Assembly (NCBI GenBank): GCA_964418665.1
Contig: CAYQLZ010000001.1
Location: forward strand, 29,078 to 93,077
DNA: 64,000 bases
Reading direction: 5' to 3'
Source: an uncultured Dehalococcoidia bacterium
GTDB taxonomy: Bacteria; Chloroflexota; Dehalococcoidia; Lucifugimonadales; GCA-2712585
Shown here: positions 48,737 to 50,170 of the stretch, piece by piece
Layout: the number at the start of each line of letters is the position of its first letter
Position numbering within the stretch: the stretch's first letter is position 1
Made by a program: the position numbers and the translations under genes
The notes under the pieces: generated by a model
The model's database searches: none
What the model saw: the letters and a program-made list of their open reading frames with translations, nothing else
Told to the model about the DNA's origin: nothing

Positions 48737-49060
48737 GGTTGGGGAGTGGATTGTGAGGGTGGGGGTGGGTTCCTGCCTACGCAGGAACAAGGAAGGGGAA
48801 GGGGGAGAGCACAAGGGTTGCCCCTACGGGGAGATTCAGGGGGGAGGGGTGAGGAAGTGGGGTGGCGGGTTCAGGCTTGAAGTAGGCCGAGGGGGAGGCA
48901 GGCGGAGACGGTGTAGTTGGGGATGTCCACGACGTTGCTGATTTTGAGGTCGACGCGAATCACCCCCATCTAGGGGGAAGAGGTTTTGGGGAGTTCGCGA
49001 GTGGTTTTGCAAAGGTCTCCATCGAGGGGGGAGAGGTAGGAGAGGAGGGAGAGGGCGGCG
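48737..49060. repeat. Hairpin repeat array plus a 71-bp pseudo-copy of the formamidase 3' end
   Basis: cctacgcaggaacaagg and cacaagggttgcccctacgg modules. 48886-48956 duplicates 49076-49146 (2 mismatches). gaatcacccccatctagggggaagagg and gcaaaggtctccatcgagggggg hairpins lie between the copies. Confidence 0.85.
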
Positions 49061-50170
49061 CTAGCCATCCAGGATGCCGAGGGGGAGGCAGGCGGAGACG
49101 GTGTAGTTGGGGACGTCAACGACGTTGCTGATTTTGAGGTCGACGCCGACGCTGCAGATGACGTAGGCCTGCTCGCGGGAGAAGCCCCGTTCCTGAAGCA
49201 GGTCTATCATGTTGATGAGGGCGTTTCGGCAGGCCAGGGTGAGATTTTCACCGTCGTTGACACCGTCGTCGGTGACAGGCATGCCCATGGTGGCGATGAA
49301 GTTCTGCGGGGCTGCCCACATGGGGTCGATGAAGTAGTCCTCGCGGCTGAAGCGGGGCCATCGGATGTTGTGGCGGGCTGCCTCGCCCTTGTGCACCTTG
49401 AAGCGGACGGAGACCGTTGCGCCCATCTCAACGGCGGTGACGCAGACTTCGCCGTCGCCCTGGGCGAAATGGGCGTCGCCCGTGGAGAAGAGGGCGCCAT
49501 CGACGGCCACGGGGAGGAACAGCTTGGAGCCCTTGGAGAGCTGTTTAACGTCGAAGTTGCCGCCGTTCTCCCTGGGAGGCAGGGTGCGGAGACCGTCGGA
49601 GGCCGCCGCGCCGTGGGCGGGGACTGCGCCGGCGGCGTCGGGGGGGAGGGCCATGCCGCCCTTGGCTATAAGGTCGTTCTCCCTGTCGGTCCACTGCTTG
49701 AGCTGGGCGTGGGAAGGGGCGACGCCGGAGACGCCCATGAAGGAGGCGCCGGGGATGCGGACGCCGGGTATCTGCTCCGAGGTTGCCCAGCCGTCGGCGA
49801 TGTTCCAGTGGACCATGAAGGGTTCGGTGTAGAGGTCCCTGAGAAAGCCGAGGCCGGGGATAATGCTGCTGAAGGCCCAGGGCTGGGGTTCAACGTCGGT
49901 GAACTCTATTTCCAGCAGGTCTCCGGGTTCGGCGCCCTTGACGAGCACGGGGCCGGTGAGGGGATGGACGGCGCCGGTGTCGAGGGAGCCGAAGTCCTCG
50001 ACGGTGCTGGAGGCGTTGAGTTGGCCGTCAAGAGCGTCCCGGGTCTCGAGGACGATCTCTTCTCCCTCCTCCGCTTCGATGGCGGGTTGGACATCTGGAT
50101 GCCATCGGTTATGGCCGGTTTCGGGCTGCTCGGAGAGGGACTTGCTGCGGTCTATGGTGATGCTCTTCAT
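49061..50170 (-). CDS. Acetamidase/formamidase family protein
   Basis: FmdA/AmdA family features (HNRWHPD, GAVHPLTGP, NGGNFD, STGDAHFAQGDGEV). 369 aa. Confidence 0.85.
   Translation of the reverse strand: MKSITIDRSKSLSEQPETGHNRWHPDVQPAIEAEEGEEIVLETRDALDGQLNASSTVEDFGSLDTGAVHPLTGPVLVKGAEPGDLLEIEFTDVEPQPWAFSSIIPGLGFLRDLYTEPFMVHWNIADGWATSEQIPGVRIPGASFMGVSGVAPSHAQLKQWTDRENDLIAKGGMALPPDAAGAVPAHGAAASDGLRTLPPRENGGNFDVKQLSKGSKLFLPVAVDGALFSTGDAHFAQGDGEVCVTAVEMGATVSVRFKVHKGEAARHNIRWPRFSREDYFIDPMWAAPQNFIATMGMPVTDDGVNDGENLTLACRNALINMIDLLQERGFSREQAYVICSVGVDLKISNVVDVPNYTVSACLPLGILDG

Follow-up and report, generated by a model that had tools for sequence, protein, structure and literature searches.

A formamidase gene end present twice

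How does the end of a protein-coding gene come to be present twice, once within the intact gene and once just beyond it, with a repeat element between the copies? This question is raised by a formamidase locus in a 64,000-nucleotide (nt) stretch of DNA, hereafter the window, from an uncultured Dehalococcoidia bacterium (assembly GCA_964418665.1, contig CAYQLZ010000001.1 of 296 kb, positions 29,078–93,077 of the forward strand), a G-skewed sequence of ~61% GC. The formamidase/acetamidase gene (FmdA_AmdA, PF03069; 49061–50170, minus strand) encodes 369 amino acids and is convergent with dinB (47516–48736, plus strand), which encodes a DNA polymerase IV of the IMS family. We conclude that the feature lying between the two genes is a real recombination scar of an ordinary kind, located at a cluster of elements that resemble repetitive extragenic palindromic (REP) sequences and that form an undescribed repeat family. 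Our best reading, held with about even confidence, is that two versions of the formamidase end and its adjoining spacer were joined head to tail by one-sided or unequal recombination.

The feature is built around two direct repeats, 48886–48956 (D-left) and 49076–49146 (D-right), both read on the minus strand. They align without gaps and are identical at 69 of 71 bases (E = 2.5e-27 in a self-BLAST of the 64-kb window), which confirms the 71-nt repeat with two mismatches reported in a preliminary description of the locus. The mismatches, at 48924/49114 (T/C) and 48928/49118 (C/A), lie 4 nt apart (chance 0.11), so that the longest identical runs measure 38 and 28 nt; of all 31-mers in the region, just the eight within the 38-nt run are found twice in the window. 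The repeats are spaced by 190 nt, and the 119 nt between them consist of a 104-nt element, E1, and the last 15 nt of the gene.

The right copy is in frame within the FmdA_AmdA protein, which ends in LPLGILDG with its stop codon at 49061–49063. The protein has a full-length PF03069 match recorded for it and orthologs of the same length, the best of its 7996 homologs being 369 amino acids long and sharing 86–91% identity with it. The left copy can be read in the same frame (...VDLKISNVVDIPNYTVSACLPLGLLQA) through an LLQA tail to a TGA at 48871–48873; both readings had been given correctly in the preliminary description. Compared with the gene, D-left (codons VDLKISNVVD(I)PNYTVSACLPLG) carries one synonymous change and one valine-to-isoleucine change, the latter at a residue that is valine in nearly all homologs. 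The formamidase gene is thus intact and carries its ancestral tail; downstream of it, the left copy persists as a dead fragment of 86 nt. A single non-homologous joint, at 48956/48957, connects the two sides head to tail, precisely where the pre-existing element E1 terminates.

The resident gene end and element E1 are older than the duplication

The 15 nt at 49061–49075 (minus strand), which encode ILDG and a TAG stop, had been taken for a new gene end created by the event. A check of which ending is conserved, proposed in the same description, points the other way. The closest formamidase orthologs, which share 86–93% amino acid identity and come from several species-level metagenome-assembled genomes (MAGs), end in LPLGILEG, and ILEG also terminates every one of the 15 cluster members listed (of 60). 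The present ILDG tail is therefore the ancestral gene end and not a new one.

Element E1 (48957–49060, plus strand) is a two-unit, REP-like element. Its head, GAATCACCCCCATC, is fused to the hairpin CCCCC-ATCTA-GGGGG, after which come a type-2 unit, GCAAAGGTCTCCATCGAGGGGGGAGAGG, and a spacer rich in G. The element contains two 5-bp G:C hairpins. The earlier assignment of this segment to two hairpin units of a dispersed family is thereby upheld. We compared the locus with ~85 related loci. In L002–L005, L008, L010 and L011, an element of the same family directly follows the formamidase stop codon and ends in GATGGGGGYGATTC 60–105 nt downstream, without any duplication. The GATGGGGGYGATTC end of E1 in the window is placed as in these sister loci, which represent at least four sister Dehalococcoidia lineages. 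By our reading of the sequences, the head unit of the window equals that of L008 except for 16 nt that have been lost from between two GATGGGGG repeats. E1 thus predates the duplication, because an orthologous element occupies the same site in sisters that lack the duplication. A second copy of the gene end adjoins the gene in none of the ~85 loci; the duplication is lineage-specific. By the same comparison, what is new in the window is the left copy together with the spacer Z beyond it, placed between a conserved stretch of ~33 nt after dinB and the head of E1.

The sister loci further document that these elements can alter the ends of neighboring proteins, as had been suggested. In L002–L005 and L010, the last ~27 codons of dinB and its stop codon derive from the element and overlap the formamidase stop by 4 nt (L002:6107–6262), whereas dinB of the window (48620–48736) ends 15 residues past the shared GDRRGWA motif. 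In L008, the closest locus by formamidase identity (5090–5430), the formamidase tail is ILAT and directly abuts a module; the whole of dinB is missing there, leaving a remnant of ~30 nt from its stop region and the spacer between dinB and the aminotransferase gene. Among the strains represented by L002–L005 and L010, which are 98–99% identical, no module-level insertions or deletions are seen in 10 kb, and these strains therefore give no direct evidence of very recent mobility.

A probable second version of the gene end

The 15 nt that follow D-left in the direction of the gene (48871–48885, minus strand) encode LLQA and a TGA in frame with the left copy, and resemble a second, genuine formamidase C-terminus. 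The LLQA and ILDG ends differ at 8 of 15 bases, compared with 2 of 71 in D (Fisher p = 5e-6); the two ends therefore have different histories, and the left one is neither a recent nor a decayed copy of the resident end. In a profile of 86 homologs of 369 amino acids, L, L, Q, and A are the second, second, first, and second commonest residues at the last four positions. The stop codon is kept in the same register, although it has changed from TAG to TGA by two base changes. The 22 nt to the left of D, comprising this tail and its flank, match the true tail and flank at 12 of 22 positions in register (shuffle p = 0.005), and Z shows a weak collinear similarity to E1 plus the tail (global alignment p about 0.005). 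Taken together, the fit of all four residues to the profile, the register of the stop, the flank match, and the collinearity of Z make the left tail look like a gene end that has been under selection. LLQA is moreover the functional end of a 369-amino-acid protein, P0255, encoded on a public contig described below. We read the left side, from these comparisons, as a probable second version of the gene end and spacer, once functional and with a separate history.

Spacer Z (48737–48870, plus strand) spans the 134 nt from the dinB stop to the left-copy stop and is a module-rich, G-rich sequence particular to this lineage. Its first ~33 nt are conserved with L008; they are followed by an 8-bp hairpin module at 48769–48788 (GTTCCTGC/GCAGGAAC) and then by a CCCCTACGGGG hairpin. 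In the sister loci, Z has no counterpart beyond short module matches. A search with a 62-amino-acid LLQA-tailed protein query returned only short C-terminal fragments, none of them with LLQA. Stand-alone ORFs (open reading frames) of this kind, corresponding to the C-terminal quarter of the formamidase, 58–109 amino acids long and mostly starting with MGMP (P0121–P0240), occur on many public contigs, some of which are hundreds of kb long.

A single-copy form in independent assemblies

Three contigs from the Logan collection are 100% identical to parts of the window. Contig L088 (SRR22586461) covers 44516–48769 and carries dinB, including its exact 406-amino-acid product (Pfam IMS/IMS_C; synteny kept in sister loci); it ends at 48769, exactly at the start of the first module of Z, as expected if two versions of the spacer diverge there. 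Contig L089 (SRR8304786, 1756 nt) matches 48414–48885 and 49076–50359 and reads from the end of dinB through Z, the LLQA tail, and one D into the gene body. It is exactly 190 nt shorter than the window over this interval, lacks E1, carries the D-right base states in its single D, and is otherwise 100% identical. The hypothetical formamidase of the window with an LLQA tail has an exact match in the public collection, which is P0255. Contig L001, from the sibling run SRR8304785, covers 49014–50238 and reads from within E1 through the ILDG tail and D-right into the gene body. Contigs L089 and L001 therefore establish that both gene-end contexts exist in independent data. They also confirm D-right, and Z is confirmed by L089, its first 33 nt by L088 as well.

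L089 and L001 are de Bruijn assemblies with k = 31, and L089 could represent a real haplotype produced by recombination, the parental version, or a path through the de Bruijn graph from which the loop is missing. Coverage seems to be low, since L089 and L001 both terminate in unique sequence, and each of the three would be compatible with it. For a time the unbroken passage of L001 through the 38-nt run was considered as evidence that the left copy is absent; we dropped this argument, since low coverage and tip clipping explain it equally well.

The check for an assembly artefact, which the preliminary description had asked for, is accordingly favorable for the flanks, matched by the Logan contigs; ~48917–49013 is the only interval that is without an independent assembly, and it holds the variant bases of D-left, the D-left/E1 junction, and the head unit of E1. 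Further searches were negative: a 47-nt D pattern allowing both variants had no match in the metagenome contigs of the Joint Genome Institute (JGI), exact look-ups in the contig index found neither the aminotransferase nor a 32-amino-acid left-copy ORF, exact look-ups of seven ORF variants across the left-copy borders (48885/48886 or 48956/48957) found none in the collection, and hypothetical proteins with the D-left isoleucine were not in the protein collection.

How the two ends may have been joined

In our best reading, the left version consists of D-left, the LLQA end, and Z, and the right version of E1, the ILDG end, D-right, and the gene body. We infer an order of events, a source of Z and the LLQA end, and the enzymology of the joint as follows. 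The ancestral order would have been dinB, a short spacer, E1, an ILxG end, and formamidase, as retained in sister species. A second version of the gene end, comprising Z and the LLQA tail, would then have arisen in this lineage or been imported into it, and a one-sided or unequal recombination, homologous toward dinB and illegitimate at the E1 head, would have set Z, the LLQA end, and D beside that head. Later RecA recombination between the 71-nt repeats, with a crossover in the 38-nt run, could pop out 190 nt and yield an LLQA single-copy form such as L089. The earlier suggestion that the locus is the footprint of either an insertion or a recombination event thus survives in its second half: an origin by recombination or repair is the better reading, and a fresh insertion of E1 is contradicted by the same-site element in sister loci.

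Spacers of this kind are prone to recombination in the relatives, and this supports the proposed joining. Tandem duplications of 50–250 nt are frequent in their module-rich spacers, and locus L061 (OY282456.1) carries a copy of its own formamidase end, 56 nt long and 95% identical (5051–5106 and 8212–8267), including tail and stop, 3.1 kb downstream of the gene. The L061 copy lies beyond genes for an adenosine 5′-phosphosulfate (APS) kinase, a sulfotransferase, and an MpaB-like protein, and its join order (the relatives' ~6946, then 5051) is that of a tandem duplication. Near-perfect tandem or local duplications of 80–250 nt are found at L057:5141–5376, L011:3324–3800, L018:3105–3703 and 6503–6914, and L008:3044–3575; they flank the formamidase gene on either side, and the one in L057 begins 31 nt past its stop.

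Several observations weigh against this reading. It requires several events. We found no long contig with an E1-only single-copy haplotype and its left flank, and no LLQA-tailed formamidase from another species is among the listed homologs. The ends of L089 and L001 in unique sequence would also fit pruned paths through one duplicated genome. D-left and the D of L089 differ at two bases, which implies either later mutation of D-left or a parental version other than L089. Finally, Z and E1, both of them G-rich, resemble each other only weakly.

Among the alternatives, a templated patch is unlikely, yet it accounts for several features of the left copy. Repair of a break at the E1 head would have copied just the 71 nt of D, located 119 nt away, through a double template switch or synthesis-dependent strand annealing, perhaps primed on a module-like motif of the gene, GCCGAGGGGGAGG, and the LLQA end would be a chance sequence of Z. 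The borders of D are sharp on both sides, the left one falls on a motif similar to the family core, CGAGGGGGAAG, the two closely spaced mismatches are of a kind that error-prone repair synthesis might leave, and the right part of Z has no relative anywhere in the compared loci. Chance, however, poorly explains a tail that fits the family profile at four of four positions and is followed by a stop in the same register, nor does it predict the in-register match of 12 of the 22 nt to the left of D. The sequence just left of the border is also unlike a module arm, and for this reason priming by module-core microhomology at the border between Z and D-left was discarded.

A plain tandem duplication of a 190-nt unit (E1, tail, and D) is likewise unlikely. 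Here the left element and tail would have diverged by module turnover, while gene conversion kept the two D copies alike. The joint between the D end and the E1 head is indeed a head-to-tail junction, duplications of 50–250 nt are common in the relatives' spacers, and Z with the left tail is weakly collinear with E1 plus the true tail. Two complete units of similar identity are nevertheless not what we observe: the 71 nt are 97% identical and the other 119 nt ~55% identical at best. In local alignments the type-2 unit of E1 scores 40 against other copies in the window and only 12 against the right part of Z, the contrast between 8/15 and 2/71 differences would need a special conversion history, and neutral decay is not expected to hold the stop in register or to shift the tail toward residues typical of the family.

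That two co-occurring haplotypes, one with Z and the LLQA end and the other with E1 and the ILDG end, were strung together in the MAG contig by the assembler is improbable. The two sibling runs do each give a clean single-copy contig of one kind, the interval around the joint has no independent assembly, and no ORF spanning the joint is on record. The joint, however, offers no shared sequence on which an assembler could jump, it falls exactly at the biological terminus of an element, the two base states of D-left occur in neither Logan contig, and there are no Ns; the ends of L089 and L001 in unique sequence can be explained by low coverage and tip clipping.

The idea that E1, with a new 15-nt end, entered an LLQA-tailed gene and produced an unusually long, 71-bp target-site duplication is hardly credible: L089 is shaped like an empty site, being 190 nt shorter, ending the gene in LLQA, and lacking E1, but sister species show that the ILDG end and E1 represent the ancestral condition, no duplications flank the other copies of the family, E1 lacks terminal inverted repeats, and L089 carries the D-right base states.

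The repeat family and its relation to known systems

Within the window, the family of E1 is represented by eight copies of the head GARTCACCCCCRTC and twelve of the hairpin core CCCCCATCGAGGGGGAAG, distributed over seven intergenic clusters; when up to 2 mismatches were allowed, the head motif was matched 13 times, where 3.4 matches would be expected. The joint at 48956/48957 corresponds to the canonical family terminus, GARTCACCCCC. All 8 heads and 12 cores lie on the plus strand (20 of 20 in the same orientation), and tandem arrays of modules in one orientation occur, for example at 53979–54131. The heads are located at 27215, 34112, 34187, 48957, 50654, 53979, 54030, and 54081, and the cores within 9198–54103. 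The plus strand is G-rich throughout, with a positive GC skew in every 2-kb bin (mostly +0.1 to +0.3) and a monotonic cumulative skew, and the module family shows an absolute orientation bias relative to the presumed direction of replication. In the spacer between the formamidase gene and the Mnh operon, a 35-nt unit is repeated exactly (50721–50755 and 50986–51020) and a 91-nt unit at 86% identity (50662–50752 and 50874–50964), which indicates local amplification of modules. We know of no description of this repeat family.

The elements agree with the REP type in being short imperfect palindromes in many extragenic copies, with G:C stems of 5–9 bp, eight heads, and twelve cores in 64 kb. REP sequences, bacterial interspersed mosaic elements (BIMEs), and REP doublets forming hairpins (REPINs) are likewise short G+C-rich hairpin units that are modular, clustered, and numerous and that often lie just after stop codons; they are associated with RAYT genes, which encode Y1 HuH transposases. 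The sequence of the E1 family matches no Rfam model. REPINs as defined by Bertels and Rainey are inverted doublets of REPs (PMC3116915, PMC3337134), whereas all 20 motif copies of the E1 family point one way. That recombination leading to duplications uses REP sequences as join-points is an old observation (Shyamala et al, 1990; PMC551756, as listed in PMC7661048). Our literature searches for recombination precedents and for REP elements in Chloroflexi or sponges returned nothing usable.

Insertion sequences (IS) and miniature inverted-repeat transposable elements (MITEs) also leave direct host repeats on both sides of a repeat element. The present locus differs from them in the length of the repeat (71 bp versus 2–14 bp), in concerning a single copy, in the lack of terminal inverted repeats, and in the age of the element, which is older than the duplication. 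To our knowledge, no bacterial transposition yields target duplications of ~71 bp. A scan of the whole 64-kb window for host duplications of at least 18 nt up to 600 nt from a family copy found the E1 site as the sole case, and the ends of E1 showed no terminal inverted repeats, only its internal hairpins and two 8–9-nt chance pairs. The preliminary description had proposed searching for an empty site in sister genomes and for duplicated host sequence around other copies, and neither was found: the close relatives L002–L005, L008, L010, and L011 carry an E1-type element at the same site, and L089 lacks E1 but has its ancestral tail replaced too.

Duplicated attachment (att) sites at gene 3′ ends, attL and attR, resemble the locus in that duplication of the 3′ end preserves an intact gene and leaves a remnant on the far side of the insert. 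Here, however, only 119 nt separate the copies, with no integrase or other ORF with a family match among them. We abandoned an integrase-mediated att duplication because the parallel case in L061 likewise carries no integrase; its breakpoint in the gene is also a different one. A parallel to the proposed joining is homology-facilitated illegitimate or unequal recombination, a concept reportedly described by de Vries & Wackernagel in 2002, which similarly has one non-homologous joint and homology on the other side and leaves the gene intact alongside a truncated duplicate of its end. In its plain form it does not predict a joint at the terminus of a repeat element, as seen here.

Neighborhood and other repeats in the window

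The gene order Mnh antiporter, formamidase, dinB, class IV aminotransferase, PlsY, PAP2, PrkA is kept in the nearest relatives. These are also the genes within ~5 kb of the locus, to which the Pfam view extends. No Rfam model matched within 47000–55000. The spacer as a whole did not fold significantly better than shuffled sequences (z = −1.9), and it contained no promoter-like site and one terminator-like match, which is within chance.

Apart from the dispersed modules, the self-BLAST of the 64-kb window revealed only one other short duplication of high identity, at the N-termini of two lipoprotein paralogs. The paralogous genes lie 2.4 kb apart and share 149 nt at 92% identity, of which 89 nt at 98% (15889–16037 and 18305–18450); the common stretch encodes a lipoprotein-type signal and N-terminal region (LLLLSGCSTGGDGETPEAVDSS...), and a partial duplication or recent gene conversion could account for the likeness. 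Three paralogous coding stretches that have diverged to 60–82% identity (14976–15235, 23981–24240, and 33343–33605) and are spaced by ~9 kb suggest that related genes of one family recur along the window.

Implications

The locus offers a practical warning, as k = 31 assemblies and MAG contigs disagree at this formamidase end. Two aspects deserve attention: the absolute strand bias of the module family and a possible three-way polymorphism among sibling samples. In the latter case the three forms (E1 with the ILDG end, Z with the LLQA end, and both) would constitute a live structural polymorphism within a natural population of Dehalococcoidia, made by break-and-join at the termini of an undescribed, strand-oriented family of hairpin modules. 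We regard this extension as doubtful; if it were true, the 71-nt gene fragment would be an “off-target” passenger, the modules would move by copying or recombination at element ends and not by cut-and-paste with target duplication, and they would swap the C-terminal residues of neighboring enzymes.

For these uncultured Dehalococcoidia, the spacer between two convergent genes, filled with REP-like modules, is a recombination hot spot, and gene ends beside such modules can be exchanged or duplicated without destruction of the gene. If the LLQA single-copy form and the duplicated form co-exist, the locus would provide a dated, junction-level example of an uncharacterized repeat family reshaping gene termini, and a handle on the mechanism by which it does so.

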